A stretch of DNA of 62,724 nt, counting the filler. It is 4 parts of 4 records of this genome, joined end to end, with 100 filler letters (N's around TTAATTAATTAA, not from the genome) between each part and the next. Parts side by side here need not be neighbours in the genome. Positions count along the whole stretch, not along the records: positions 10,939 to 38,490 come from SRR31156797_4998; 3 more parts are not named here. The stretch is one strand, 5' to 3'. Made by a program: the position numbers and the translations under genes. Under the pieces are notes generated by a model. It had not been told where the DNA came from, made no database searches, and saw only the letters and a program-made list of their open reading frames with translations. The stretch's first letter is position 1. Each line of letters opens with the position of its first letter. Positions 18,152 to 56,290 of this stretch are shown here, one piece after another.

Positions 18152-19084
18152 ATGAAAGCCCCGATTAAAATTTTTGCTGGTTCAAACAGCGAGCATTTGG
18201 CAGGTAAAATTGCAGAAGCAGCAGGTTTAAGTGTTGGAGAATCGAGTATCGTTAGATTTAGCGATGGAGAGTTTGAAACTTGTTACGAAGAAACAGTTCG
18301 TGGATCTCACGTTTTTATTGTTCAATCAACTTATCCTCCAACAGATAACTTGATGGAATTATTATTAATGATTGATGCTGCGAAAAGAGCTTCTGCTTAC
18401 AAAGTTTGTGCTGTAATTCCGTATTTCGGATTTGCTCGTCAAGACAGAAAAGATCGCCCAAGAGTTGCTATTGGTGCAAAATTAGTTGCTAACTTATTGA
18501 TGGCTGCTGGCGTTGATCGTGTTATGACTATGGATTTACACGCTGATCAAATTCAAGGTTTCTTCGATATTCCAGTTGATCACCTTTATGGTTCTTCAGT
18601 ATTACTTCCATATATCGAAGAGTTAAATCTTGATAATTTGGTAGTTGCTTCTCCTGATATGGGTGGTAGTAAAAGAGCTAATGCCTATGCTAAATATTTA
18701 AACGCAGGTTTAGCTATCTGTCACAAATCAAGAGAGAAAGCAAACGTAGTTGGGGAAATGACAGCTATTGGTGAAGTTGAAGGTAAGAATGTAGTTATCG
18801 TTGATGATATGATCGATACTGCAGGAACAATTACCAAAGCTGCCGATATGTTGAAAGAAAAAGGTGCTAAAAGTGTTCGCGCTATTGCATCGCATGCTGT
18901 TCTTTCAGGTCCTGCTTACGAAAGAATTGAAGAATCAGCTCTTGAAGAGGTAATTTTCACCAATTCTATTCCATTGAGAAAAGAGACATCAAAGATCCAG
19001 GAATTAACAATTGCTGATATTTTTGCTAAAACAATTATGAATGTTTACAATTGCGAATCAATCAGTTCCAATTTCATTTTATAA
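18152..19084 (+). CDS. prs: Ribose-phosphate pyrophosphokinase
   Basis: RFSDGE, PYFGFARQDRK, DLHADQIQGFF and VDDMIDTAGT motifs. Confidence 0.97.
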   Translation: MKAPIKIFAGSNSEHLAGKIAEAAGLSVGESSIVRFSDGEFETCYEETVRGSHVFIVQSTYPPTDNLMELLLMIDAAKRASAYKVCAVIPYFGFARQDRKDRPRVAIGAKLVANLLMAAGVDRVMTMDLHADQIQGFFDIPVDHLYGSSVLLPYIEELNLDNLVVASPDMGGSKRANAYAKYLNAGLAICHKSREKANVVGEMTAIGEVEGKNVVIVDDMIDTAGTITKAADMLKEKGAKSVRAIASHAVLSGPAYERIEESALEEVIFTNSIPLRKETSKIQELTIADIFAKTIMNVYNCESISSNFIL

Positions 19085-19088
19085 TTCT

Positions 19089-19096
19089 TATATTTG
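19089..19096 (+). promoter_or_regulatory. Bacteroidota -7 element (TATATTTG) giving rplY a leader of about 100 nt
   Basis: TAnnTTTG match immediately after the prs stop codon. Confidence 0.6.
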
Positions 19097-19128
19097 CGCC
19101 GAATTTAGGTAAAAACAATTTTATAAAC

Positions 19129-19188
19129 GTGTGATGGGATGTTAGCCGAACCTTTTTACCGGGTAATGAAGATGACATTGAGTAGCAC
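19129..19188 (+). ncRNA. Candidate cis-regulatory rplY leader RNA mimicking 5S rRNA loop E
   Basis: GUGU/GCAC stem, GAUGG/GAGUA internal loop and GAUGUUA/UGACAUU 7-bp stem; ends 14 nt before the rplY ATG. Confidence 0.6.
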
Positions 19189-19202
19189 AAAATTCATATC
19201 AA

Positions 19203-19781
19203 ATGAAAACTTTAGAATTAAAAGGTTCTTTAAGAACTGACTTAGGAAAAAAAGCTACTAAAGCTTTACGTAGAGCAGAAATGGTACCATGTGAATTGTA
19301 TGGTGGTGGCAAAAACGTTCACTTTGCAATTAGCGAAAAAGACATTAACAAATTGCTTTATACTCCTGAAACTTTCATCGTAAAATTCGATATCGAAGGA
19401 AAAGAGTTTACTGCAGTAATGAGAGATGTTCAATTTCACCCAACTACAGACAAAGCAATTCACGCTGACTTCTTCCAGGTATTCGAAGACAAAGCATTCG
19501 AAGTTCAGATTCCTATTAAAGTAGAAGGATTCGCAAAAGGTGTTCAGTCTGGTGGTAAATTAGCTGTTAACTTGAGAAAATTAAAAGTTAAAGGTTTAAT
19601 GAAAGATCTTCCAGAATTCTTACCTATCGATGTTACTGAATTAGGTCTTGGTAAGAGTACTCAGATTAAGGAGCTTGATTTCGAGAACCTTGAAATGCTT
19701 AATGCTAAGAATGCCGTTGTTGTACAGGTTAAGCTTACAAGAGCTGCTCGTGCTGCTGCAAATGCTACTACAGAAGAATAG
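19203..19781 (+). CDS. rplY: 50S ribosomal protein bL25/Ctc
   Basis: GKKATKALRR..VPCELYG, DVQFHP..HADF and a C-terminal Ctc domain; canonical prs-rplY-pth order. Confidence 0.95.
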   Translation: MKTLELKGSLRTDLGKKATKALRRAEMVPCELYGGGKNVHFAISEKDINKLLYTPETFIVKFDIEGKEFTAVMRDVQFHPTTDKAIHADFFQVFEDKAFEVQIPIKVEGFAKGVQSGGKLAVNLRKLKVKGLMKDLPEFLPIDVTELGLGKSTQIKELDFENLEMLNAKNAVVVQVKLTRAARAAANATTEE

Positions 19782-19803
19782 TCTTTTCTTTAGTAAAAAA
19801 TAT

Positions 19804-19836
19804 AACCTCCCGAGCCATTGGCATGGGAGGTTTTTT
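19804..19836 (+). terminator. Intrinsic terminator after rplY
   Basis: AACCTCCCGAGCC-ATT-GGCATGGGAGGTT hairpin followed by a T tract. Confidence 0.8.
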
Positions 19837-19893
19837 AATATCAAATAATAAGAGTTTAAGGTTTTCAACAAATATTTTACCTTTGATTCTGAT

Positions 19894-20538
19894 ATGATTC
19901 AATTCTTGAAAAAAATATTGGGGATTTCATCATCTTCCAATAAGGAAATAAACAATAATCACATGAAATATCTGGTTGTGGGCTTGGGTAATATTGGTGC
20001 AGAATACCATAATACCCGTCACAATATTGGTTTTAATATTCTTGATGCTTTAGCCGAAACAGCTAAAATTGAGTTTAAAGATGCTCGATACGGAGCAATG
20101 ACTGAATACAAATTTAAAGGACGTACTTATGTATTGGTAAAACCAAGCACCTACATGAATTTAAGTGGTAAAGCCGTAAATTATTGGCTGCAAAAGGAAA
20201 AAATTGACGTTAAAAACATGATGATTCTTGTTGATGATCTTGCTTTGCCATTTGGAACTTTACGACTTCGCCCGAAAGGTAGCGATGCAGGTCATAATGG
20301 TTTAAAGCATATCAATGAAATTTTAGGACATCAAAACTATGCGAGATTGCGTTTTGGTATTGGCGATGATTTTCACAAAGGTCAGCAAATAGATTACGTA
20401 TTGGGTAAATGGAGTGAAGAGGAATCGGAGAAGCTACCGGAATTGTACAAAATTTGTATCAACATGATAAAAGGTATGAGTACAATTGGAATACAACGCA
20501 CCATGACTGCCTACAATACTAAAAAAGTGAGCAAATAA
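19894..20538 (+). CDS. pth: Peptidyl-tRNA hydrolase, possibly with an N-terminal extension
   Basis: [26 protein letters not shown] and GHNGLK motifs. Confidence 0.95.
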
Positions 20539-38590: not shown

Positions 38591-40201
<1,611 letters not shown>

Positions 40202-40205
40202 TTCT

Positions 40206-40751
40206 GTGAACTACTTTAAAAAACTTAGAATATTGATTGGTGCATTTTTACTTAGAAGAAAATTGAAAAATATTAAACGAACACCAATTATATGTAACGT
40301 AGATAATGCAAAAAGTATTGGTATTGTTTTCAATTCCAGCAAAAAGGAAGATATGGCCTCTATTAAAAAGTTGGAGACTATGTTTAAACAAAAAAACATT
40401 CTTTTTGAAGTATTGGGCTATATTCCATCCAAGCATAAACCTGATGAACTAATTGGAGACAGCCATCATCACTATATTTGTTTAAAGGATTTCAATTGGC
40501 TTTTTCAACCCAAAAGCGAACTTATTCATCAATTTATTCAAAAGGATTTTGACATTCTTATCGATCTTTATCAGGAAGATGAATTTCCGATTGAATATAT
40601 TTTAAAAATATCACAAGCCCGTTTTAAAGTTGGATGTGCTCATGTAAATAACGAATTGCATGATTTAATGATTGATGTTGAAAAGAAAAAAGATGATGCT
40701 ACTTATTTGAGTGAGCAGATTTTACACTATTTAAGCATGCTGAACAATTAA
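40206..40751 (+). CDS. Conserved Bacteroidota hypothetical protein (DUF6913-like)
   Basis: KSIGIVF, FDILIDL, SQARFKVG and DLMID pattern; usual ligA neighbour. Confidence 0.6.
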   Translation: MNYFKKLRILIGAFLLRRKLKNIKRTPIICNVDNAKSIGIVFNSSKKEDMASIKKLETMFKQKNILFEVLGYIPSKHKPDELIGDSHHHYICLKDFNWLFQPKSELIHQFIQKDFDILIDLYQEDEFPIEYILKISQARFKVGCAHVNNELHDLMIDVEKKKDDATYLSEQILHYLSMLNN

Positions 40752-40752
40752 C

Positions 40753-40768
40753 TGGCACGAAAATTGAA
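40753..40768 (+). promoter_or_regulatory. Sigma-54 (-24/-12) promoter candidate for the lpoB operon
   Basis: TGGCACGAAAATTGAA; GG and the -12 dinucleotide are 12 nt apart. Confidence 0.55.
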
Positions 40769-40863
40769 ATTTCATACGAGCTTAAAAATAGAATATTAAA
40801 CATCGAAATATAGCTTATCAATAAAATTGATACAAAACCAGTAAAACCTAAAAACACAAGCAC

Positions 40864-41451
40864 ATGAAAACAAAATTATTAAGTTCATTTGTACTATTAG
40901 CCATCTTTTTTGCAGCCTGTTCTAGTCATAAAGTTGAGAGAGTATCACCAGATGAAGCCATCGACTTAAGCGGCAGATGGAATGATACTGATTCTAAAAT
41001 GGTTGCCGATGCTATGGTTGACCAAATTCTTTCCGGAGCCTGGATTGACAATTACCAGAAAGATAATGACGGCAAAAAACCTGTCGTGGTAGTGGGTTTA
41101 ATTTATAACAAATCTCATGAGCACATTAACTCTGGAACTTTTGTTAAAGATGTTGAGCGTGCTTTTATTAATAGTGGTCGTGTTCGATTAGTTCAGGCCG
41201 GAGATAAACGCGAAGAATTAAGAACAGAAAGAGCTGCTCAGCAAGAATTCGCCTCAATGGAAACTGCTAAACAATGGGGTAAAGAATTAGGTGCTGATTT
41301 TATGCTGAACGGCGATATTAATTCTATTGTAGACACCTATAAAAAAGAGCGTGTTAACTTTTACAAAACTAATTTAGAATTATCCAATCTGGAAACCAAC
41401 GAAATTGTTTGGATTGGAGATAAAGAGATTAAAAAATATATAAACAAATAA
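40864..41451 (+). CDS. lpoB: Penicillin-binding protein activator LpoB family lipoprotein
   Basis: Lipobox FAAC, DLSGRWNDTD, NKSHEHI, LGADFMLNGDI and IVWIG motifs. Confidence 0.78.
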   Translation: MKTKLLSSFVLLAIFFAACSSHKVERVSPDEAIDLSGRWNDTDSKMVADAMVDQILSGAWIDNYQKDNDGKKPVVVVGLIYNKSHEHINSGTFVKDVERAFINSGRVRLVQAGDKREELRTERAAQQEFASMETAKQWGKELGADFMLNGDINSIVDTYKKERVNFYKTNLELSNLETNEIVWIGDKEIKKYINK

Positions 41452-41553
41452 AATAAGGCATATCCGAAGCTATTATTCACTTCGGATATGCATTTTCTTC
41501 CTAATAAAATAGCACTGTTTATCACATTCCTTTCACACCTCACATCTTTACCT

Positions 41554-42960
41554 ATGCCAATTAAAAAAACAAAATATTACATTTTAATTGTCGTTTCTCT
41601 TATATCACTTAGCTTTTGGGGTTGTGCAACTTACTACCAAAAAAACTACCAGCTACAATCGTACATTACAGGTGGAAATTACGCGGCTGCAGATAAACTT
41701 TTAAACAAAGACAAGAAAGGCGAAACAGGTATTAACCGTGTTTTACACTATATGAACAAAGGGCTTGTTAACTTTATGCTGGGTAACTACCAAACCAGTA
41801 ATGAATATTTAAACAAAGCCGATTTATACAACGAAGATTATTCAAAATCATTAGGGACTGAAGCACTTTCTTTGATCTCTAATCCAATGGTAAAACCATA
41901 CAAACCTGAAGATTTTGAAGCAGTAATGGTTCATTATTACAAATCATTAAATTATCTGATGCTTCAAAATTACGAGGAAGCCTTGGTAGAATGTCGTCGT
42001 GTAAATATTCTGCTACAGCAACTAAACGACAAGTATCGCAAGCATAAAAACAAGTATAGTAATGATGCATTTGCCCACAATTTAATGGGAATGATTTATG
42101 ATGCTTCCGGTGATATGAACAATGCGTTTATTGCTTATAGAAATGCATACAATGCCTACGATGGAGAGTATAAAGAACTCTTTGGATTTGACGCTCCGGA
42201 ACAGCTTAAAAAAGATCTTTTACGTACTTCTTATAAAATGGGATTTATGGAAGAATATAATAAGTACAAGGATCTTTTTAATTTATCATATACTCCGGAA
42301 GAGGAAGAGGGTGGCTCATTGGTATTTCTTTGGATGAATGGTTTTGGGCCGGTTAAAGCAGAGTGGAGCATTAATCTTACCAACACTGGTTATAACGACG
42401 GCTGGATTACTTTTGCCAATGAAGATTTAGGTTTTGATTTTCCGGTTTATATTGGCAGTCGTAAAAAAAGTGAGCAAAATGCATTTAAGAACTTATCATT
42501 TCTAAGAATTGCCTTCCCAAAATATGTTGAAAGAAAACCCGTTTATACATATGCTAATATAACTTTTAATCAACAGGAATATCCCCTTGAACTTGCTCAA
42601 AACGTTAATGCTATTGCTTTTCAATCGTTAAAAGATAGAATGGCTCGGGAACTTGCAAATGGTATTGCACGTCTGGCTACAAAAAAAGCACTTGAGAGTC
42701 TTGCTAATCGTGAAAATGAAAACTTAGGCACATTACTAAGCATTGTAAATGCCATCACAGAAAAAGCAGATACCAGAAACTGGCAATCCTTACCATATGC
42801 CATTCACTACACGCGCATTTCATTACCTGCAGGAAAGCAATCTGTTAGCTTAAACCTTAATGGAGAATCGGAATCTTCTGAGAAATTTGAATTTAATATT
42901 GAGAAAGGTAAAACCCTATTTCATTGCTACCACCAACTGGCGTCTTCTACGGCCCATTAA
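41554..42960 (+). CDS. COG3014-like TPR lipoprotein (LpoB-associated)
   Basis: Lipobox FWGC, YKPEDFE, EALVECRR and EKADTRNWQSLP motifs. Confidence 0.7.
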   Translation: MPIKKTKYYILIVVSLISLSFWGCATYYQKNYQLQSYITGGNYAAADKLLNKDKKGETGINRVLHYMNKGLVNFMLGNYQTSNEYLNKADLYNEDYSKSLGTEALSLISNPMVKPYKPEDFEAVMVHYYKSLNYLMLQNYEEALVECRRVNILLQQLNDKYRKHKNKYSNDAFAHNLMGMIYDASGDMNNAFIAYRNAYNAYDGEYKELFGFDAPEQLKKDLLRTSYKMGFMEEYNKYKDLFNLSYTPEEEEGGSLVFLWMNGFGPVKAEWSINLTNTGYNDGWITFANEDLGFDFPVYIGSRKKSEQNAFKNLSFLRIAFPKYVERKPVYTYANITFNQQEYPLELAQNVNAIAFQSLKDRMARELANGIARLATKKALESLANRENENLGTLLSIVNAITEKADTRNWQSLPYAIHYTRISLPAGKQSVSLNLNGESESSEKFEFNIEKGKTLFHCYHQLASSTAH

Positions 42961-43105
42961 GAGTTATTAGAGGAAGGATTACGTTTATTTATCGAAATTT
43001 ACACGAAGAAATATCATTATTTTTGGATTTAGACCTTCTAATATTGTATTTTGGTACACTGAAGTTTTAAATAAATAAACTATTTAGTTAATATCAATAT
43101 TCCAG

Positions 43106-45808
43106 GTGAATTTAGCGGATCATAATTACAATCAGTATCTAAAAAAGTGGAAAAGTCAATTCAGTCTTTTTGCTGAACTCATGAATTGTAGTATGGTTTT
43201 GATCAGCAAGATAAAAGCAGATGCGTTAACTACGCTTGCTTATAGTTCTCCTGAAGAAAACGCTATATTTTACAACCAAAGTCCAGAAAACAGCTTAACA
43301 CAATCAGTGTTAGATGGTCAGAAAGAATTATTAGTTTCTAACTTACAGGAGAATGATACTTATTCTAATTCTGTAGAGAAAAAGGCTGGCCTAAAATGTT
43401 TTTATGCACTTTCAGTTCAAAACAATAAGGGTAACATAATAGGTGCACTCTGCATGTACTCTAAAAACATTAGTTTTTATACTAACGAGCGTATTGCACA
43501 ACTCACCCAGATTAAACTTCAGTTGGAGGCCGATATACAAGTTGCAATTCATGATGACATTACTGAACCTGCTATTTTTGATGATGTATTCAACAAAGAA
43601 GATAAGATAAAGCACTTCCTTAAGTTTTCGCCAATTGGAGTCTTCTTCTATGATACTAATCTGGTTATTACAGATTTGAATCATAAATTTGCTGAAATAT
43701 TAAAGTCTGAGCGAGAAGTGTTACTGGGCTTAAATATGAATTTAATTCACGACAAGCGTGTATTACCTACTTTACATAGTGCTATTTTAGGAGTGGAAGA
43801 TGAATATGAAGGTGAATACATCACATCTACCAGCGGTACTAGTATTGACGTATTAATGAAAACAGCTCCTATACTAGACAGTGACAAAAAAGTAAGCGGT
43901 GGCATAGGAATTATTCAGGATATTTCTATCCGAACTCATATTGAAAAAGCACTCAAAACCAGTGAAAATCAATATCGTGAGCTAGTTGAAAAAATCAATG
44001 ATGTAATATTTTCTATTGATACAACTGGCGTTTGCACCTATGTTAGTCCTGTTATTCAGTTACTCATTGGTCATTCACCTCAGGAAATCATTGGTTATCA
44101 TTTTATAAACTTTATACATGATAACCACAAAATCACTTTTCATGATGCTTTAAATAAAGTATCACAAGGTTCTACTGTAGTTTCTGAAATTAAAATTAAA
44201 GATAACACAGGAGGATATCGCTGGATTAGAAGTTCTATGCGTCCGGTATACAACGAAGATGGTTTATACGCAGGAGCGCATGGTATTGCTCAGGATATTG
44301 AGGAAACAAGACTTGCTGAAATATCTTTACGTGAAAGTGAAGCTCAGTTTAAACTGGTAGCAACTCACCTATCGGACATTATTTATGAGTGGAATCCCAA
44401 TACAGATGAATTAATTTGGTATGGTAACCCCAATATTATTTCAACTAAGCTAAACCATATTACAACTTTCACAGAGTTAAACGAGATTATCTACAAAGAT
44501 GATCAGGAACAAATCAAGGAACTTTGGAATAAGGCATATAGCGACCAGGAAGCCTGGAAATCTGAATTTCGTATACTTAATCCTCCACAAAAAAGTAAAT
44601 ACGTTTCCGGCAGTGGAATCTTGATATTTAAGGACAATAAGCCTCATAAAGGATTTGGAACCTTAACGGATATCTCAAATGAAAAGAAATTACTGGAAAA
44701 CTTAAGATTATCTAACCTTAAGTTGGAAGAAACCATTACAAAAACAAACGGATTATTATCTGCAATACCAGATATGATGCTGGTTTTTGATAAAAATGGG
44801 TTCATAACCGATTTTCATACGAATGATGAACAAACCTTGTTTAAAAGCTCCATTAACTTTTTAAATAAAAATATATTAAATGTATTACCCAAAGAAATAG
44901 CTGAGCTAACCCTGGAAAAAATATCAGGTGTATTACATTCTAAACAGATTGAAACCTACAAATACAAATTAAGAATTAATGGACATAAGGATACATTTGA
45001 AACACGAATGGTATACTTAAATGAGCTTCATACATTGGCTATTGTTCGGAATATAACACAAGAAGAAAAAGCTAAACTGGATTTAATAAAAGCTAAAGAA
45101 AAGGCAGAAGAAAGTGACAGACTAAAATCATCTTTTTTGGCAAACATGTCTCATGAAATCAGAACTCCAATGAATGGTATCATTGGTTTTTCTGAGTTAC
45201 TTTCCAATAAAACACTAAATCCAACTGAAAGAGAATATTACACTTCGGTTATTGTTAAAAGTGGGCATCAGCTTCTGGAAATAATAAACGATGTATTGGA
45301 GATTTCTAAAATAGAAACAGGTCAGTTGGAAGTAAACCAATCGGCAGTAAATCTTTATCAACTATTAGAGTCATTAGTCGATTTCTTTAAACCCAAAGCC
45401 ATAGAAAAATTTGTAGAACTGAATATATGTGTTCCTGATGAATTAAAGAATACGGTGCTGCTCACTGATGAAGGAAAGCTGAAGCAAATTCTCAATAATT
45501 TAATTAGCAACTCCGTTAAGTTTACATCGAATGGAAATATCAATATAGGGTTTTCTGTTGTGAACGACAGTTATTTAGAGTTTTATGTAGAAGATAACGG
45601 TATTGGTATTGCCAAGGATGAGCAAAAAAACATATTTGAACGCTTTACGCAAGCTAACCCCAAAATTACGCGTCAGCATGGAGGTACCGGTTTGGGTTTA
45701 TCCATATCTCAAAGTCTGGTTGAAATGCTTAGGGGAAAAATATGGGTTGATTCTGAGTTAGATAAAGGAGCTAAATTTTCTTTTTCTCTTCCTTATAAAA
45801 AGCCCTAA
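43106..45808 (+). CDS. Cytoplasmic GAF/multi-PAS sensor histidine kinase
   Basis: GAF-like N-terminus, about four PAS domains, [20 protein letters not shown] and GGTGLGLSI. Confidence 0.9.
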   Translation: MNLADHNYNQYLKKWKSQFSLFAELMNCSMVLISKIKADALTTLAYSSPEENAIFYNQSPENSLTQSVLDGQKELLVSNLQENDTYSNSVEKKAGLKCFYALSVQNNKGNIIGALCMYSKNISFYTNERIAQLTQIKLQLEADIQVAIHDDITEPAIFDDVFNKEDKIKHFLKFSPIGVFFYDTNLVITDLNHKFAEILKSEREVLLGLNMNLIHDKRVLPTLHSAILGVEDEYEGEYITSTSGTSIDVLMKTAPILDSDKKVSGGIGIIQDISIRTHIEKALKTSENQYRELVEKINDVIFSIDTTGVCTYVSPVIQLLIGHSPQEIIGYHFINFIHDNHKITFHDALNKVSQGSTVVSEIKIKDNTGGYRWIRSSMRPVYNEDGLYAGAHGIAQDIEETRLAEISLRESEAQFKLVATHLSDIIYEWNPNTDELIWYGNPNIISTKLNHITTFTELNEIIYKDDQEQIKELWNKAYSDQEAWKSEFRILNPPQKSKYVSGSGILIFKDNKPHKGFGTLTDISNEKKLLENLRLSNLKLEETITKTNGLLSAIPDMMLVFDKNGFITDFHTNDEQTLFKSSINFLNKNILNVLPKEIAELTLEKISGVLHSKQIETYKYKLRINGHKDTFETRMVYLNELHTLAIVRNITQEEKAKLDLIKAKEKAEESDRLKSSFLANMSHEIRTPMNGIIGFSELLSNKTLNPTEREYYTSVIVKSGHQLLEIINDVLEISKIETGQLEVNQSAVNLYQLLESLVDFFKPKAIEKFVELNICVPDELKNTVLLTDEGKLKQILNNLISNSVKFTSNGNINIGFSVVNDSYLEFYVEDNGIGIAKDEQKNIFERFTQANPKITRQHGGTGLGLSISQSLVEMLRGKIWVDSELDKGAKFSFSLPYKKP

Positions 45809-45810
45809 CG

Positions 45811-46428
45811 TTACCTTGTAGTTATAAAGTTGCATTTCACCGAATCCACCTTCTCAAATCGATTTATCACTTTCTCCACTTCCGACTGTCTTAATGCAAA
45901 CTCAATCACACAATTTAAATCAAACTGCTGATTAGTAATATTAATATTTTCTTCTTTTACAATCCGCATAACATCATTCATAGCCAAATAATCAAATGCG
46001 ATTTCATAAACATCATCCACTGTTTTTTCAATGATGGTCGCATTATTTATGGCATCAATCGTGGCTTCTTTGTAGGCATGAATTAATCCTGGTACACCTA
46101 ATTTAGTTCCTCCAAAATAACGAATTACCACTACAAGTATGTTAGTTAATTCATTTGATTTTAATTGCCCATGAATGGGTTTACCTGCCGTTCCAGAAGG
46201 TTCCCCATCATCATTTGCCCTATATCTTAAACCATCTGTACCCAATTGCCATGCAAAACAATGGTGGCGGGCATCGTAATATTCCTCCCTTAAGTGCTTA
46301 ACTATATCCTTTATTTCTTCTTCTGAATATACTGGGTAGGCATATGAAATAAATTTGCTTCCTTTTTCTTTATAAATCCCTTCCGATGATGCCTCTATGG
46401 TTTTATATAAATCAATATTTTCTGCCAT
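45811..46428 (-). CDS. yigZ: YigZ/IMPACT family protein
   Basis: KGSKFISY, ARHHCFAW, DDGEPSGTAG and RYFGGTKLG motifs. Confidence 0.92.
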   Translation of the reverse strand: MAENIDLYKTIEASSEGIYKEKGSKFISYAYPVYSEEEIKDIVKHLREEYYDARHHCFAWQLGTDGLRYRANDDGEPSGTAGKPIHGQLKSNELTNILVVVIRYFGGTKLGVPGLIHAYKEATIDAINNATIIEKTVDDVYEIAFDYLAMNDVMRIVKEENINITNQQFDLNCVIEFALRQSEVEKVINRFEKVDSVKCNFITTR

Positions 46429-46498
46429 TCGAATACTAATACCCTTCTTTATTTAATAATCACACAAACTTACAAAAAATACATCCCTATCAAAAAAC

Positions 46499-46537
46499 AT
46501 CAAAAGGCTATCCTTACCACAAGAATAGCCTTTTGAT
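46499..46537 (-). terminator. Terminator hairpin after the NigD-like gene
   Basis: ATCAAAAGGCTAT...ATAGCCTTTTGAT inverted repeat. Confidence 0.65.
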
Positions 46538-46555
46538 TAAATTGTATATAAATTT

Positions 46556-47245
46556 TTATTCTACTTCATACTCTAAATTAAAATCCTGCTCCTGAGAATC
46601 CCCGCTATTAATCCTGAGTGTAAATTCTATTACATTATCTTCATCCATTTCAGACCACATTTGTAGCTGACTGATATTAAACGAATATAAACCTGCTACA
46701 TATTCATCATCATCATTAACTTCAGGATAATAATTACGTAATTCAAGAATTACAGGCTCCCCTTCTTCTTGAATTGTTTCGTCATAACATAAAGAAAAAA
46801 CATGATCTCCTTCCTCCTGCTCATAAACAAGTTCGAGGTTTAAATAATCACCACCAACCAAAGGATATGCACTTAATTGAACAAAACCATTGCCAATCGT
46901 ATCTCTGCTATTTTCGTTTAATGCTACCAAGTCTCCTTCTTCTACATAGTATAATTGCTCAAGATTAACAAGGTAATCATAGATTCCTCCAGCATTTTCC
47001 TCCTCTATGGTAAAAGTTATTACTACTCTGTCATTTTCTTCAAACTGTAAATCCGAATCATCAAATTCATTCATCTTTAATACCAATCCTCCATCGGTTG
47101 TGGCGTAATAAACATCTCCAATTGTATACATATTACTCCAGGCCGAATAGTATATTGGTTGCGGGTCTTCGTCTTCCAAACAACTATACAGACCTGTTGA
47201 AACCAATACCATTAAAAAGATAAATCCTAATTTAAAATTTCTCAT
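46556..47245 (-). CDS. NigD-like acidic lipoprotein
   Basis: Lipobox LYSC, TDGG..RVVITF OB-like N-terminus, YLNL, HVFSL and ILELR. Confidence 0.65.
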   Translation of the reverse strand: MRNFKLGFIFLMVLVSTGLYSCLEDEDPQPIYYSAWSNMYTIGDVYYATTDGGLVLKMNEFDDSDLQFEENDRVVITFTIEEENAGGIYDYLVNLEQLYYVEEGDLVALNENSRDTIGNGFVQLSAYPLVGGDYLNLELVYEQEEGDHVFSLCYDETIQEEGEPVILELRNYYPEVNDDDEYVAGLYSFNISQLQMWSEMDEDNVIEFTLRINSGDSQEQDFNLEYEVE

Positions 47246-47352
47246 TGTATAAAATGTGTGTTTAATATTTTGTTACTTTATATTGTGATAGCAATTACAC
47301 CAAAAGGTTGCGTTAACTTTTCTATTATTTTAGTCTAAAATTACTAATTAAT

Positions 47353-48189
47353 ATGGCTTCTGAAAGCTCAAACAAATCATATTGTTGCCAAATAACAATT
47401 GGAGAGCAAGCTCAAAACATTGATTACAAAAACATAAAAGAAGTATATGAAGTAATTCGAGTAGAAAACAAAGTTCCGGTATTTCTCGATGATCATATGC
47501 ACAGATTAAATAATAGTTTTAAGCGACTAAACATTTCTAATATTTTTTATCCGGAACAATTAACTAAAGCAATTCATCAATTCATCATCAACGATCAGAT
47601 TATAAATAACAATATTAGAGTTTCATGTTTACTAAACCCTGATAACTCTTGCAATTATTATATATATAGGGTTAAATCATCATATCCCACTTCGCTTATG
47701 TATAAAAATGGAGTAGATACGATTTTATTGCATGCAGAAAGAAAAAATCCTAACATTAAAATTGGCCATACACAGGTGAGAGAAACTGCCAACAAAGAAA
47801 TATTAGAACGACATGTATTTGAGAGCCTATTGGTTAATCATGATGATGAAATTACAGAGGGTAGTCGTTCTAACGTTTTTTTTGTTCATAATAATCAAAT
47901 TATTACAGCTCCGGATAATTTGGTGCTTCAAGGAATAATCAGAAGTAAGGTGATTGAAATTTGCCAACAAAATGAGTTGCCATTAATTTATAAATGTCTA
48001 CCTATTGGTGAATTAAAAGATGTACAAGCAGCTTTTATTACAGGAACCTCATCGCGCGTTTTACCTTTAAGATCCATTGATAATGTGGCCTTAAGCACAG
48101 ATCATCCCTATATAATTCAGTTAAAGGAATTACTTAAGCAGAAAGTACAGCACTATATCCAAAACGATACCAACAAATTATCGAAATAA
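47353..48189 (+). CDS. Aminotransferase class IV (PabC/IlvE-like)
   Basis: VYEVIRV, HMHRL, ITEGSRSNVFF, LQGIIR and FITGTS motifs. Confidence 0.85.
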   Translation: MASESSNKSYCCQITIGEQAQNIDYKNIKEVYEVIRVENKVPVFLDDHMHRLNNSFKRLNISNIFYPEQLTKAIHQFIINDQIINNNIRVSCLLNPDNSCNYYIYRVKSSYPTSLMYKNGVDTILLHAERKNPNIKIGHTQVRETANKEILERHVFESLLVNHDDEITEGSRSNVFFVHNNQIITAPDNLVLQGIIRSKVIEICQQNELPLIYKCLPIGELKDVQAAFITGTSSRVLPLRSIDNVALSTDHPYIIQLKELLKQKVQHYIQNDTNKLSK

Positions 48190-48636
48190 ACGCTCATCAA
48201 AATGAAAAGATTCTATATATTTAATCTTTACCCTGTTAAAATCAGCATGAAGCGGATTAATAATGATATTATAATCACCATGAACTACTGCGGACGGTAC
48301 TTTTAAATACAAGAATTTTCCTTCTTCTACAAACTCCTCTCCTATCTCCTGAGTAACTTTTGAATAAGGAAAATAATTCCAACTACTTGGTAGTTTATTT
48401 GCTTCTATAGTTTTAAAAGGAACATTGTCAGGTATTTCTATTGTTATTAATTGATAATCCTTTGGTAATATTCCCATGGGTGTATGTACAGCTATTTCTG
48501 CAGTACACAAAGCCCTGGAATCTGAAGTATACAAAACACGCGTGCCTTTATAATTCCAACGGCCACCAGTTAATTCTGCACCAATACCTGATAAATCACT
48601 GGCATACCTTTTTACAGCTAAACGATAAACCATCAT
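48178..48636 (-). CDS. RES-domain toxin (type II toxin-antitoxin; NAD+-consuming family)
   Basis: VYRL, GGRWN, LYTS, AE, VPSAV and NIIINPLH motifs. Confidence 0.88.
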   Translation of the reverse strand: MMVYRLAVKRYASDLSGIGAELTGGRWNYKGTRVLYTSDSRALCTAEIAVHTPMGILPKDYQLITIEIPDNVPFKTIEANKLPSSWNYFPYSKVTQEIGEEFVEEGKFLYLKVPSAVVHGDYNIIINPLHADFNRVKIKYIESFHFDERLFR

Positions 48637-49046
48637 GCTAAAATACCGTGCTCTATTTTTAGCAATTCGTCCTTAATCATATTAATACCAAAGGTATTAT
48701 CCAATAAAGAAATGGGTTCAATACCTCCTAGAGACACACTACGGGTATTTAACCAACTTATAAACTTATCATTATCTCCAAATAGCTCAAGCCCCTTTTT
48801 AAACAATAACATCACCAACAGTAAGCGTTCGGTATGTATAGAATCAAACTTCTTTTTTTCACGTTTATAGCGCTGCATAGTTCGTTCTGATACATTTAAT
48901 ATTTTGGACCAGTCGTAACTACTCAATGGAACCTGTGTAGATAAACGATCAAATGTATCGTAGTCCACTCCTTCACGGGTAGTATGTATCAATTTAAATA
49001 CATCTCTGTTGTCTAAAGACTTAAATGTTAAACGCTCTGCTCCCAT
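48633..49046 (-). CDS. Xre/MbcA/ParS-type antitoxin
   Basis: HTH ILNVSERTMQRY and C-terminal WLNT..SLGG..PISLLD..GI...L.KIEHGILA; ATGA overlap with the toxin. Confidence 0.88.
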   Translation of the reverse strand: MGAERLTFKSLDNRDVFKLIHTTREGVDYDTFDRLSTQVPLSSYDWSKILNVSERTMQRYKREKKKFDSIHTERLLLVMLLFKKGLELFGDNDKFISWLNTRSVSLGGIEPISLLDNTFGINMIKDELLKIEHGILA

Positions 49047-49063
49047 ACCATTATAATTTATTT

Positions 49064-49104
49064 CAAATTTACGACATTTTTTACATTAAACACGTCATTT
49101 GTCG
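49064..49104 (-). promoter_or_regulatory. Toxin-antitoxin promoter (-7 TAAATTTG) with adjacent candidate operators
   Basis: CAAATTTA at 49064-49071 (+ strand), CGACATTT at 49072-49079 and imperfect palindrome CGTCATTTGTCG at 49093-49104. Confidence 0.5.
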
Positions 49105-49117
49105 GGTTTGTTTATAC

Positions 49118-49148
49118 AAAAAAGCCGATGATGTATATCACCGGCTTT
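49118..49148 (-). terminator. Intrinsic terminator after icd
   Basis: AAAGCCGATGAT-GTAT-ATCACCGGCTTT hairpin with A tract on the + strand. Confidence 0.7.
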
Positions 49149-49169
49149 GATTTTATAGATTATTCAATA

Positions 49170-51434
<2,265 letters not shown>

Positions 51435-51506
51435 TTATATTGGTTATTATATTGTTATCGATTATAGAACCATGCAAAAAACAATAAGCAAGCTACATAG
51501 TTCATC

Positions 51507-53242
51507 TTATTCTACATCTAAATCAAACTTTTTCGTTAATAGCAACAAGGCAGGATTTTTCTTCGCCATTAATTTGGCTTTATCCGCAGCCGTAAACGCT
51601 TTGGTATGCTTTTGCTCCCCTTGCATTAAAGATGTTTTCAACTCCAGTGAAGCATTTTTAAGTTCTACTTTTAGAAAAGTAAAAATAGTCGTCTTTTCTG
51701 CCTGTAATTCCTTTTCCTGGGTTACATTTTTCAGTTCAACACTTAGCACATGACCATCCTGTAATTGAGGAATATGGTTATTCATGATACTGGTTAAGCG
51801 AAGATTATTCGCTTCAACTTGCTTGGCATATTTTAACCAGGCTCTTTTCACAGACTCTTCTGAAACCGGATTATTCCAGCTTGGATCAATCTTGATTTCT
51901 TCTTTTTTCTCTTCTTTAGTCTGTTTTTGCTTTGTACTCCCTAAATCCTGACCTCCTTGCAATGCTGCCTTCAGAGAAATGGTTTTTAAAGGGCTTTTTT
52001 GAACTCCACCTGATATTGGTTTCGTTTCTTTTGTAACGGATTTCACAGGTCGTTTATTCCCTGCTGGCGCTGCACCGGTTGAACTTACTTTTTGATCACT
52101 CCCCCCGGAACCGTTTTTCTGCCTCGCCTTTTTCGCTACTTTTTTCTTTGCTCTTCCAGTACTCTGGATGCCTTTATTAAAGCAAACTCGACGTGTAATC
52201 TTTTATTTTTAGCGACTCTATACTGTAAATCGCAATCGTTGGTAATATTCAGGGCATCAATTAAAAAATCAACACTACTTTTTTGCGCTTGCTCGGCATA
52301 CTTTTCTTTCACCTTTGCCCCAACATCCATTAACTGAATAGTGGCAGGATCTTTACACACCAGCAAATCTCTGAAGTGTGAACTTAATCCTGAAATAAAG
52401 TGATGCGCATCAAAGCCTCTTTTTAATATTTCATCAAAGATTAATAAAGTTTGCGTGGTATCTTCTGCCAGAAATGCATCAACTAATCTGAAATAGAAAT
52501 CATAATCCAGTACATTCAGATTATCTATCACCTGCTGATAACTGATGTTTTTACCCGAGAAAGCAACAATCTGATCGAAGATCGATAATGCATCCCGCAT
52601 AGCTCCATCTGCCTTTTGAGCGATTACGGTTAATCCTTCATCCTCTGCTTCTATTCCTTCGCTTTGCGCTACATATTTTAAATGACCAACGGCATCTTCA
52701 ATCGTTATCCTATTGAAATCATAAATCTGACAACGAGACAAAATGGTTGGTAAAATCTTATGCTTTTCGGTGGTTGCCAATATAAAAATGGCATGCTTTG
52801 GTGGTTCTTCTAATGTTTTAAGGAAAGCATTAAACGCCGCCTGCGACAACATATGAACCTCATCGATGATATACACACTATAACTGCCAATTTGAGGCGG
52901 AACCCGAACTTTATCAATCAGGCTTCTAATATCCTCAACCGAGTTATTGGATGCACCATCTAATTCGTGAATATTATAAGATCGATTTTCGTTGAACGAA
53001 GCACATGATTCGCATTCGTTACAAGCTTCAAAATCGGCTGTTATATTAGAACAGTTTATGGTTTTAGCAAAAATCCGAGCACAGGTCGTTTTACCAACTC
53101 CACGTGGTCCGCAAAACAAGTAAGCATGTGCTAACTGACTGCCCTTTATGGCATTTTTTAAAGTTGTGGTAATGTTCTGTTGTCCAACTACTGAAACAAA
53201 TGTCGAAGGACGGTATTTACGGGCTGATACAATATAGTTCAT
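51507..53242 (-). CDS. dnaX: DNA polymerase III gamma/tau; 368 aa in frame 0, about 578 aa via a -1 frameshift at 52139-52145
   Basis: ARKYRP, GPRGVGKTT, IIDEVHML and SRC motifs; A AAA AAG TAG at the end of frame 0; the -1 frame is open for 210 codons to the stop at 51507. Confidence 0.9.
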
Positions 53243-53263
53243 GTATATTTTTTTTGCTATGCG

Positions 53264-53271
53264 CAAATATA
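53264..53271 (-). promoter_or_regulatory. Bacteroidota -7 element (TATATTTG) for dnaX
   Basis: TAnnTTTG match; supports ATG 53242 rather than TTG 53266 as the start. Confidence 0.6.
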
Positions 53272-53470
53272 AAATTTAAAAACGGGGGATGCAATCTGAA
53301 TGAAAGGTAATAGGGTGCTATCCAAAAATTATTAAAAAGTTCCCATCCGTAAAATCAGAGGATTGAAGAAGTTTAGGAACAAACGCTTAACAAAATAAAA
53401 TTATATGAGAATAATCAAGACTTTTTAGATCAGAATCACTTGTATTCATTTGGGCTCCTTATGTTTTGAA

Positions 53471-55843
53471 TCAACTTTTATTAAACCTAAGATGATAGTT
53501 CTCGTCCCAATCAATAAATCCGGAAACATCGGTTTCTTCATCCGACAAACTAAAACCTTTTAATTTTCCGGTTTTACTTTTAAAGATAAGTGCCTCCATA
53601 TTGGCTTTGCTCAATTTCTTTTTCAGGAATTCGAAAGGAATAATTACCCGACAGCCATTTTTAAAATTAGAACAACCCCAGGCCGATTTTCCTTCGAGTA
53701 TATGACCGGTTTTACATTTAGGACATAACAATTCTTTAGCAGCTTCTTCCTCCAAACGCAAGTTAAAATCATCATCAAAACTAAGCACCCCGGCTACCTT
53801 GCTTCCTTCTAATTCAAAACCTTTTATTTTAGGTGTTTTTCCTTTTAAAATCAAACCTTCCACTTGTTTATCAGTCAGGCTCTTTCCTAAAAACTTAAAG
53901 GGAATTAATGTTTTACAGCCCGAAGCATAAGCAGAACACCCCCAGGCACTTTTACCTTTTATCATGGTACCCTCAGCGCATCGAGGACACTTTAATTCTT
54001 TGGCACTTTTAGCTGTTGGCTTTGCTTTAGATTTGGTTTTTACTTCCTTATCATCGTTTTCTTCAATAACAATTTTACCTTTGCTATAATCATTCTTTAC
54101 CTGAAAAACCAAATCAGAAACCATTTGCTTCAACTCCCCCATAAAATCACCTGCCTGGTAATTCCCGGTTTCGATTTGTCGTAGCTTTTGTTCCCACAAG
54201 CCGGTAAGTTCAGCTGATTTTAGAAGATCATTAGAAATAAACTCCATCAGCTTTACGCCCATGGTTGTTGGCAACACATTTTTACGAACCTTATATATGT
54301 ATTTACGCTTAAACAGGGTTTCGATGATATTGGCTCGTGTAGACGGACGACCGATGCCATTCTCCTTCATCAGCTCTCTTAACTCATCATCATCCACCTG
54401 CTTACCCGCTGTTTCCATAGCTCGAAGCAAAGTTGCCTCAGTATAATACTTTGGTGGCTGGGTTTCTTTCTCCTGAAAATCGGGTTCATGCGGACCACTT
54501 TCACCTTTGGTAAATTCAGGTAAAATCTTATCCTCCGTATCCTTTTTCCCTGACATAGATTTATACACCACTCGCCAGTTTTCCTTCAAAACCTGCTTTC
54601 CGGATGTTTTAAAATTGACATCCTCTACTTTCCCTAAAATGGTAGTTGTAGATATTTCACAATCGGTATAAAAGTTGGCTATAAATCTCCGGGTAACCGT
54701 ATCGTAGATAATTTTTTCATCGCGAGATAAACTCTCCGGTGCCGTCATTCCTGTAGGAATAATGGCATGGTGATCAGTTACCTTTTTATCATCAAATACT
54801 TTTTTAGACTTACGTATTTTTGCTCCCAACAAAGGCTCAACCAATGCCTGATACTGTTTTAATCCTTTTAATATCCCGCTAATTTTCGGATAGATATCAT
54901 TACTTAAATAAGTGGTATCTACACGCGGATAAGTAGTGAGTTTTTTCTCGTATAAGGACTGAATACCTTTTAAGGTTTCATCCGCCGACAAGGCAAACTT
55001 TTTATTACACTCTACCTGTAAAGAGGTTAAATCAAATAAACGCGGAGGCGCTTCTTTTCCTGGCTTTCGACTAAAATCGGTGACCTCAAAAGGTTTATCC
55101 TTAATTTTTTCCAATGCAGAACTCCCCTCCTCTTTGCTCGCATATTTTCCTTGTGTTGAATTAAATGTGACTCCTTTGTATAGCGTTTTAAGCTCCCAAT
55201 AAGGTTGAGGAACAAAGTTTTCTATTTCGAGATATCGATTTACAATCAATGCAAGCGTTGGTGTTTGAACTCTACCGATGGATAAAACCGTTCCCGGTTG
55301 ACTATACTTGATGGTGTATAAGCGTGTGGCATTTATCCCGAGTAACCAATCGCCAATTGCCCTGGAACTTCCTGCGGCATATAAAGCATTGAATTTATCG
55401 TTATCGTAAAGCTTTTCGAACCCCTCTCTGATAGCTTCTTCGGTAAGAGATGAAATCCACAAACGTTTTAAAGGAGCCTTGCAGCCGGCTTTTTGCAGTA
55501 CCCAACGTTGAATCACCTCTCCCTCTTGTCCGGCATCACCGCAGTTTATCACTTCCGTGGCCGTCTTCATTAGGCTTTCGATAACCCGAAACTGTTTTTC
55601 TACTCCCTTGTTCTCAATGATTTTAATTCCAAATTGCGAAGGTATGATAGGTAAAGTGCCCAGATTCCATCTTTTCCACTCGGGAAGATAATCGTGCGGT
55701 TCTTTTAATGTGCATAAATGGCCAAATGTCCAGGTAACCTGATAATTATTCCCTTCGTAATAACCATCTTTTTTGGTATTGGCACCAACAATTTTAGCTA
55801 TTTCTCCTGCAACACTGGGTTTCTCGGCAATACAAACGCGCAT
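53471..55843 (-). CDS. topB: DNA topoisomerase III
   Basis: IAEKPSVA, GDAGQEGE, IGRVQTPTL, TTYPRVD and GIGRPSTRA; two C-terminal Cys4 zinc-ribbon repeats. Confidence 0.93.
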   Translation of the reverse strand: MRVCIAEKPSVAGEIAKIVGANTKKDGYYEGNNYQVTWTFGHLCTLKEPHDYLPEWKRWNLGTLPIIPSQFGIKIIENKGVEKQFRVIESLMKTATEVINCGDAGQEGEVIQRWVLQKAGCKAPLKRLWISSLTEEAIREGFEKLYDNDKFNALYAAGSSRAIGDWLLGINATRLYTIKYSQPGTVLSIGRVQTPTLALIVNRYLEIENFVPQPYWELKTLYKGVTFNSTQGKYASKEEGSSALEKIKDKPFEVTDFSRKPGKEAPPRLFDLTSLQVECNKKFALSADETLKGIQSLYEKKLTTYPRVDTTYLSNDIYPKISGILKGLKQYQALVEPLLGAKIRKSKKVFDDKKVTDHHAIIPTGMTAPESLSRDEKIIYDTVTRRFIANFYTDCEISTTTILGKVEDVNFKTSGKQVLKENWRVVYKSMSGKKDTEDKILPEFTKGESGPHEPDFQEKETQPPKYYTEATLLRAMETAGKQVDDDELRELMKENGIGRPSTRANIIETLFKRKYIYKVRKNVLPTTMGVKLMEFISNDLLKSAELTGLWEQKLRQIETGNYQAGDFMGELKQMVSDLVFQVKNDYSKGKIVIEENDDKEVKTKSKAKPTAKSAKELKCPRCAEGTMIKGKSAWGCSAYASGCKTLIPFKFLGKSLTDKQVEGLILKGKTPKIKGFELEGSKVAGVLSFDDDFNLRLEEEAAKELLCPKCKTGHILEGKSAWGCSNFKNGCRVIIPFEFLKKKLSKANMEALIFKSKTGKLKGFSLSDEETDVSGFIDWDENYHLRFNKS

Positions 55844-56085
55844 TCTTAACTCTTAAATTTTAATGGAAGCACGAATATAGTAAAAATGTTAATGATGTTT
55901 GAAGGTTGCAATTGTAGTAATAAAGAAATGCCTTTGATGAGTATTTTGAAATCCCTCATTAATGTGCACACCATCAGTAATTAAAAAAAAGTACAACTAA
56001 CTTCTACCATATTTAGTCATACTTTTATATTTGAATATTCAAACTTACTATTGACGATATGATTAGGAATTAACCGCTTATCAAA

Positions 56086-56290
56086 TTAACTATTGATAGC
56101 TTCGGCTATGATCTTATGCATTCTTTCTGTTTGAAAAGGCTTACTAAAATATTCAATGATTAAGCCCGTATTAAGGGCTTCCTGAATCTCATCAGTAATT
56201 TGAAAACCAGTTAATATATAAAACTTTTTATCCGGGTATTTTTCTTTTGCTTTTTTGATAAATTCTATTCCATTCATCCCAGGCATTTTC
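56086..56290 (-). CDS. Single-domain response regulator (REC), 5'-truncated
   Basis: KMPGMNGIEF, ILTG and YFSKPF motifs; runs into the spacer. Confidence 0.8.

Follow-up and report, generated by a model that had tools for sequence, protein, structure and literature searches.

A hairpin ahead of rplY in Bacteroidales copies part of 5S rRNA loop E and is a candidate operator for ribosomal protein bL25

Introduction

Does the gene for ribosomal protein bL25 (rplY) of Bacteroidales carry in its own leader a copy of part of the 5S rRNA site that the protein binds, loop E, and what would such a copy do? The question arises from a 118-nt spacer between prs and rplY, which carries a hairpin whose internal loop has the letters of part of loop E. 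The spacer lies in the window, by which we mean the whole 62,724-nucleotide (62.7-kb) stretch of DNA that was analyzed, filler included. An earlier note on this DNA, made from the letters alone, had proposed that free bL25 binds the hairpin and represses its own translation.

A precedent exists in Escherichia coli, where L25 represses the translation of rplY via a hairpin in the 5′ untranslated region (UTR), as described in those parts of the literature that deal with the operator (Aseev, Bylinkina, Boni 2015, PMC4408793; review PMC10931766). The operator hairpin, HII, does not resemble loop E according to the authors' own remarks on it (PMC4408793). In the relevant portions of the same two sources, autoregulation by L25 is restricted to species with a short L25 (PMC4408793; 2024 review PMC10931766), and the enterobacterial leader goes together with a short, one-domain L25 and a GAGA element resembling a Shine-Dalgarno (SD) sequence (PMC10931766). 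As far as those portions extend, known bL25 autoregulation is that of Gammaproteobacteria with the short protein only, exerted on an operator unlike 5S rRNA (PMC4408793, PMC10931766).

The rplY locus and its leader hairpin

The source of the window is a Marinifilum-like member of Bacteroidota, whose bL25 shares 98% identity with the protein of an uncultured Marinifilum. The rplY product was identified as bL25 by the Pfam domains Ribosomal_L25p (1.6e-24) and TL5_C (2.4e-19), and its closest solved chains are ribosomal bL25 (9i5t_Y, 7e-58; 7jil_V, 1e-49). The positions of the genes, signals, and hairpin elements are given in Table 1. The box TATATTTG in the spacer fits TAnnTTTG, which we take to be the −7 promoter consensus of Bacteroidota; transcription is predicted to start a few nucleotides 3′ of it, and a TAnnTTTG box is also found upstream of the motif in related loci. 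A terminator-like hairpin with a T run after rplY would make the rplY unit monocistronic. A consensus terminator scan of positions 18900 to 20000 found none, the scanner having missed this hairpin because its stem contains an internal loop.

Table 1. Features of the prs-rplY-pth region and of the leader hairpin (positions in the window)
Feature	Positions	Strand	Basis or remark
prs	18152-19084	+	5′ of rplY
Bacteroidota-type −7 promoter box TATATTTG (TAnnTTTG)	19089-19096	+	sequence
GGUAAAA, candidate pseudoknot 5′ strand	19108-19114	+	Marinifilaceae only
P1 5′ strand GUGU	19129-19132	+	pairs with 19185-19188
Internal loop 5′ strand GAUGG	19133-19137	+	opposite GAGUA
P2 5′ strand GAUGUUA	19138-19144	+	pairs with 19173-19179
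Junction with G19148 and A19149 (unbulged GA of k-turn-like loop)	19145-19149	+	Marinifilaceae only
P3 hairpin: stem 19150-53/19161-64, 7-nt loop UUUUACC 19154-60	19150-19164	+	
3-nt bulge (19165-67), G19168/A19169, then non-canonical stem	19165-19172	+	
P2 3′ strand UGACAUU	19173-19179	+	covariation, RNAalifold
Internal loop 3′ strand GAGUA	19180-19184	+	identical to 5S loop E 3′ strand
P1 3′ strand GCAC	19185-19188	+	covariation
Linker, 14 nt, A/U-rich, without Shine-Dalgarno	19189-19202	+	sequence
rplY, long two-domain bL25	19203-19781	+	192-aa ORF, AUG at 19203
Terminator-like hairpin and T run after rplY	19806-19836	+	read by eye
pth	19894-20538	+	3′ of rplY

The internal loop is symmetric (5 + 5 nt, GAUGG/GAGUA) and lies between the stems P1 and P2. 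The positions that the earlier note had given for the stems, the loop strands, the promoter box, and the 14-nt distance to the AUG were all correct. The minimum-free-energy fold of the single sequence recovers both stems, with a z-score of only −0.42, and the bare pentamer pair at the spacing of the hairpin occurs six times in the window against 1.55 expected. The single-sequence case for the hairpin is no better than chance, and, this evidence being weak, the significance of the hairpin rests on comparison, that is, on conservation, covariation, and the restriction of its matches to rplY.

Two other observations were made elsewhere in the window. Positions 38591 to 56290 (about 17.7 kb) are 96 to 98% identical to G001:C1:1113816-1131896, and the rest of the window is 65 to 74% identical to the same genome, G001, and syntenic with another region of it. 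G001 belongs to a different genus or family from the source of the window and shares one island with it; judging from these identities, the segment looks like a recently shared island or a mobile element that has passed between different genera. Within it, positions of about 45083 to 45324 match at least 25 dispersed places in G001 at 66 to 83% identity, being a dispersed repeat or else some common conserved domain.

Conservation and covariation of the hairpin

The same design was found 5′ of rplY in all 22 named Bacteroidales loci (the window and 21 of 21 relatives), with holders in Marinifilum, Ancylomarina, Labilibaculum, Carboxylicivirga, Porphyromonas, Bacteroides, and Muribaculaceae. Across the 21 related loci, the sequence of P2 differs while the outer stem and the loop strands are kept. 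In a MAFFT alignment of 27 leaders (A1), from which our covariance model was built, 99% of the cells pair and six of the seven P2 pairs have changed on both sides. The covariation score of A1 was 0.448, compared with 0.208 for shuffled alignments (0 of 500 reached the observed score) and at most 0.10 with slid partners.

A second alignment comprised 81 leaders fitted to the model, to which it leans for that reason; three of the 84 sources gave no match with the default filters. Here 97.5% of the cells pair, 8 of the 11 pairs have changed on both sides, and the covariation score was 0.547, compared with 0.230 for shuffled alignments and at most 0.122 with slid partners. Both stems contribute, with 98.5% of the cells pairing in P1 (two of four pairs changed on both sides) and 97% in P2 (six of seven), the first P2 pair being G-U in 67 of the 81 leaders. 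An unguided RNAalifold run predicted the same P1 and P2. The compensatory stem changes that the earlier note had anticipated were found in P1 and P2 across the 27- and 81-leader alignments. The hairpin is a conserved and covarying structure in the 5′ UTR of the ribosomal protein's own gene, as would be expected of a ribosomal-protein leader.

The loop letters are conserved to different degrees. In the 81 leaders, AUG at positions 2 to 4 of the 5′ strand and GUA at positions 3 to 5 of the 3′ strand are invariant (81/81 each), and position 2 of the 3′ strand is A in 79. Variation is found at position 1 of the 5′ strand (G in 66, A in 15), at its position 5 (G in 78, A in 3), and at position 1 of the 3′ strand (G in 62, A in 11, U in 8). 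The conserved core is therefore RAUG opposite AGUA. The invariance of GAUGG/GAGUA that had been predicted holds in the near-invariant AUG/AGUA core but not in the outer letters, and the complete pair is present in 53 of the 81 leaders.

Likeness to loop E of 5S rRNA

The 5S rRNA genes of two relatives, G001 and the Marinifilum genome that holds locus L010, have GAUGG on the 5′ side and GAGUA on the 3′ side of the loop-E region. As the 5S rRNA of these relatives has the letters of the leader, the identity of the pentamers is real for the lineage of the window. The leader strands are letter-identical to the relatives' loop E over 5 + 5 letters, in antiparallel orientation and between two helices, but the sequences of these flanking helices differ from those in 5S rRNA. 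In E. coli, the corresponding strands are those that we take, with the numbering of the earlier note, to be G72-A-U-G-G76 and G100-A-G-U-A104.

Five copied loop-E pairs had been claimed from the sequence of the window. Its letters are indeed exact, but only four of the pairs are conserved; the last 5′ and first 3′ loop letters, equivalent to G76-G100, vary and co-vary to A-U or G-U in a few species. Bacterial loop E is defined by seven non-Watson-Crick pairs, of which the leader copies four to five; in place of the two helix-IV-side pairs it has a conserved G-U and an A-U or G-C pair. The copy includes the central G-A pair, which is the symmetry center of loop E according to the part of the source that describes it (PMC1976436). 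By its letters, the leader loop (RAUGG/NAGUA) is the half of loop E on the helix-V side, through the central G-A pair. The loop would be expected to adopt the non-canonical geometry of loop E, with pairs that are presumably sheared, reverse-Hoogsteen, and bifurcated.

A further likeness that had been pointed out, between the apical letters GCCGAAC and loop C of 5S rRNA, did not survive comparison. GCCGAAC is present in only 2 of the 16 Marinifilaceae leaders and is not conserved, and we dismissed it as a coincidence.

Distribution of the leader

A search with the covariance model found exactly one match in the window. Whole genomes were searched at E ≤0.01 in a sample of 151 genomes of the same order, representing about 148 families, and 53 of them matched, each exactly once. 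The L25 gene was found by Pfam L25p in 147 of the 151. When compared by hand, 52 of the 53 matches lay on the strand of L25, no more than about 100 nt 5′ of it; a contig end cuts off the remaining one. The motif is restricted to rplY across the matched genomes, as a leader of this gene should be.

Because the whole-genome search uses strict filters, the upstream regions of rplY were scanned again with the filters off. This set comprised 95 regions, from the 94 genomes without a match and from G620, in which the match was on another contig. It gave 28 further matches (E ≤0.0035), all on the strand of the gene; one wrong-strand match at E 0.28 was discarded. By both scans, the motif stands 5′ of rplY in 80 of the 147 same-order genomes having L25, and two more loci, L113 and L099 (5′ half masked), resemble the motif by eye. 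As about 45% of the sampled genomes of the order are without the motif, the leader is dispensable.

Outside the order, the whole-genome search matched none of 147 genomes that belong to other orders of the class (including an unpublished genome, G483, counted in this tally alone) and none of 146 non-order genomes in a sample of the phylum. With its strict filters, this search has a sensitivity of about two thirds, judged from the 52 holders that it picked up among the 80 known within the order. In 59 other-order families, each represented by a single region 5′ of rplY and scanned with the filters off, L191 (E 0.014) was the one credible match, and no other match fell below E 0.7. Three further genomes of the family of L191 were without the motif (0/3), and we do not claim this family as a holder. 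The earlier note had spoken of a Bacteroidota leader. The element is real, but its range is one Bacteroidales-like order and one stray case. Since every named holder belongs to Bacteroidales, the sampled order is presumably Bacteroidales in the sense of GTDB.

A loose two-block DNA pattern was also run on 401 genomes of the phylum. Reversed-pattern controls matched about equally, and its gap limit missed the Marinifilum-type leaders; the pattern was used for no count. Two genomes gave unusual loci. In the GC-rich genome G663, the rplY leader (L090) is a long hairpin with GAGUA in its 3′ side and without RAUGG in its 5′ side, the flanks forming a 6-bp palindromic stem instead; this could be a diverged or a different leader. 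In G620, for which contamination is 4%, a full motif stands at the end of a contig (L078, G620:C241:3-69) and a second rplY locus has a half-masked leader (L099, G620:C50); this genome may be two organisms in one bin.

Transcript and start codon context

Evidence on the RNA came from assembled contigs of RNA libraries, which cannot show starts, strand, or level and in which uncovered stretches carry no weight. Contigs X5 (19116-19762) and X8 (19113-19308) join the leader to the rplY coding region, and RNA contigs of related strains carry their own versions of the leader ahead of the AUG. The earlier note had named a transcription start downstream of position 19133 as a point against the hairpin. 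Such a start is weakly disfavored, as contigs that include positions 19113 to 19133 are continuous with the coding region.

The contigs on the prs side stop at 19098/99 and those of rplY begin at 19113/19116, that is, inside or 3′ of the candidate pseudoknot strand in Table 1; none of the contigs examined bridges 19099 to 19113. Several RNA contig ends fall within the leader. The contigs ending at 19098-19099 come from three RNA runs of one study and continue into adapter sequence, and their ends lie 14 to 15 nt past the prs stop codon. These positions may mark a discrete RNA end between prs and rplY.

The linker between the hairpin and the AUG measures 12 to 20 nt in 70 of the 80 leaders with a callable start codon, with modes at 14 and 15 nt. 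The linkers are A/U-rich and have neither an SD sequence nor GAGA. Consistent with this, rplY of Bacteroidetes is tabulated as having no strong SD (table, PMC7797042).

An extended fold in Marinifilaceae

The leader of the window is of a type that we compared across 16 leaders of Marinifilaceae, and its fold is more elaborate than the earlier note had made out. At the top of the hairpin, G19148 and A19149 are invariant in all 16, and the pair 19146-19171 is C-G in seven and U-A in seven. Both pairs of P3 that were counted covary, one being A-U in 11, G-C in 3, G-U in 1, and U-G in 1, and the other C-G in 15 and U-A in 1. On the opposite side, G19168 (nearly invariant) and A19169 (invariant) form a tandem G-A with 19149/19148. 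Within the adjoining bulge, the RNA contigs show strain differences at 19165 (A>G) and 19166 (A>T). The consensus of a k-turn consists of a canonical stem, a 3-nt bulge, a tandem G-A, and a non-canonical stem, and the pattern fits a k-turn-like bend at the top of the Marinifilaceae hairpin.

Such a bend would be needed if the P3 loop were to pair with the 5′ end of the leader. The candidate strand GGUAAAA there is perfectly complementary to the P3 loop, its GGUAA is invariant in all 16 leaders, and 88% of the cells of the candidate pseudoknot pair. The MAFFT alignment of the 16 leaders gave no covariation for this pairing. One compensatory change, in L015, is visible by eye alone, as MAFFT shifts that row. 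We put the Marinifilaceae pseudoknot forward as a hypothesis only; the pairing, if formed, would probably lock the fold. In the SAM-I riboswitch, the bend of a k-turn allows a pseudoknot; the likeness of the Marinifilaceae leader to such k-turns is by sequence pattern alone.

A hairpin inside the rplY coding region

Where a lineage is without the 5′ UTR motif, rplY has a different hairpin at about codons 8 to 17, with near-invariant flanking letters. It was found in 50 of the 95 regions of the order sample that had no model match beside rplY and in 14 of the 59 families outside the order; the 81 genes that have the leader were all without it. An alignment of 64 such loci (A4; L091, L094, L104, L107, L165, L186, L210, and 57 others, none of them in the window) has 99.2% of its cells pairing, five of eight pairs changed on both sides, and a covariation score of 0.260, compared with 0.105 for shuffled alignments. 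Some of the paired changes also alter amino acids. Attempts by hand to read this hairpin as a permuted or shifted loop E did not succeed, as the registers do not fit.

Because its distribution is complementary to that of the leader, the coding-region hairpin may be an alternative operator. It is conceivable, though we hold it as a tentative and rather doubtful proposal, that bL25 of Bacteroidia has two alternative and mutually exclusive rplY operators, the leader and the hairpin at codons 8 to 17, one having given way to the other as the order radiated. If so, the leader would be the first one for bL25 of the long, CTC type and, among L25 operators, the first that evidently mimics rRNA; in Marinifilaceae, a k-turn and a pseudoknot would elaborate it.

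Proposed function and alternatives

We consider it probable, from the comparative evidence, that the conserved leader hairpin of rplY is a cis-acting translational operator that bL25 binds and by which it represses its own synthesis. In the mechanism that we propose, the transcript would start just after the TAnnTTTG box, and its leader would fold into P1 (4 bp), the symmetric internal loop, and P2. Whenever bL25 is in excess over free 5S rRNA, the surplus would bind the leader's copy of the rRNA site. The bound protein would hold P1 closed and bar the 30S subunit from the A-rich start region, so that translation would be repressed. We infer the steps of L25 binding and repression, and the exclusion of the 30S subunit is suggested by the short distance between the base of the hairpin and the AUG in an mRNA without an SD. 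Mimicry as such is not required for control by L25, as the one characterized L25 operator is unlike loop E.

Instead, the hairpin might serve the rplY mRNA as a structural element to which bL25 does not bind: it might stabilize the message, enhance translation or offer a standby site where initiation is SD-less, or be bound by some other protein that recognizes loop-E/sarcin-ricin-like motifs. Motifs of the loop-E type are generic building blocks of RNA and many Bacteroidales do without the hairpin, as such an element would allow. However, the motif occurs once per genome and only at rplY, whereas a generic stabilizer or enhancer should turn up at further highly expressed genes as well, and the invariant letters are the letters of the L25 site in 5S rRNA. 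We regard a non-binding element as unlikely.

Another possibility is that bL25 binds the hairpin but that binding acts on mRNA decay, with the bound protein protecting or exposing a nuclease site, or on the elongation or termination of transcription, and not on initiation. The conservation and the loop-E identity point to L25 binding and are silent on its consequence, and the separate coverage of prs and rplY in the RNA contigs, with several ends inside the leader, would suit an effect of this kind. Yet the sequence from the motif to the AUG contains neither a terminator-like hairpin nor a U run, the tight distance to the AUG is what a steric block of initiation leads one to expect, and the precedent in E. 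coli is translational. A route other than initiation therefore appears quite improbable to us. Finally, although the pentamer pair is common and the fold energy ordinary, a chance resemblance in sequence kept for promoter or DNA-level signals is already refuted by the covariation counts, given that compensatory changes in both stems keep the pairing as the sequence drifts, that shuffled and slid controls fail, and that the position is strand-specific and 3′ of the promoter box, and we give it practically no credence.

If bL25 does repress its own translation through this leader, a major order of gut and marine bacteria would be added to those with L25 feedback, and the long bL25 to the forms of the protein that exert it. 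The leader would also be a textbook-clean case of rRNA mimicry, in which a minimal four-pair core defines what bL25 reads in loop E, and a natural system for studying repression of translation where initiation does without Shine-Dalgarno pairing. RNA annotation gains a family that it has lacked, present, with the targeted scans counted in, in 80 of 147 same-order genomes where Rfam is blank.

Relation to known systems

Rfam 15 gave no match in the window, none in the spacer at E ≤10, and none in 18 other leader loci at E ≤1, as the earlier note had expected; this applies to every family, the enterobacterial L25 leader included if it is present in Rfam 15. Among the 20 candidates of Eckert and Weinberg (2020), the Bacteroidia leaders in their Table 1 are those of L13 and S4, with none for L25, and, where that paper deals with L25, only the enterobacterial motif is re-found. 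The main texts of three large motif surveys have no mention of L25, rplY, or "Bacteroid-". The earlier note was aware of no L25 leader in Bacteroidota, and none is described in the literature searched, in which the element is not previously described for Bacteroidales.

The enterobacterial L25 leader is characterized by HI, HII, GAGA, and a short L25; here the protein is long and the linker has no GAGA. The two leaders are alike in having a hairpin in the 5′ UTR near the start, a monocistronic rplY, and a weak or absent SD. They are unlike in that their sequences and folds are unrelated, the Bacteroidales leader copying loop E and preceding, without an SD, the gene of a long two-domain bL25. 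Competition between the repressor and the 30S subunit is experimental for the E. coli leader, whereas we propose it for that of Bacteroidales. The operators of L20, S15, S8, L1, and L10 imitate the rRNA site of the respective protein. With such leaders, and with the candidates of Eckert and Weinberg, the rplY hairpin of Bacteroidales has in common a conserved, structured leader, its discovery by comparison, and its resemblance to rRNA.
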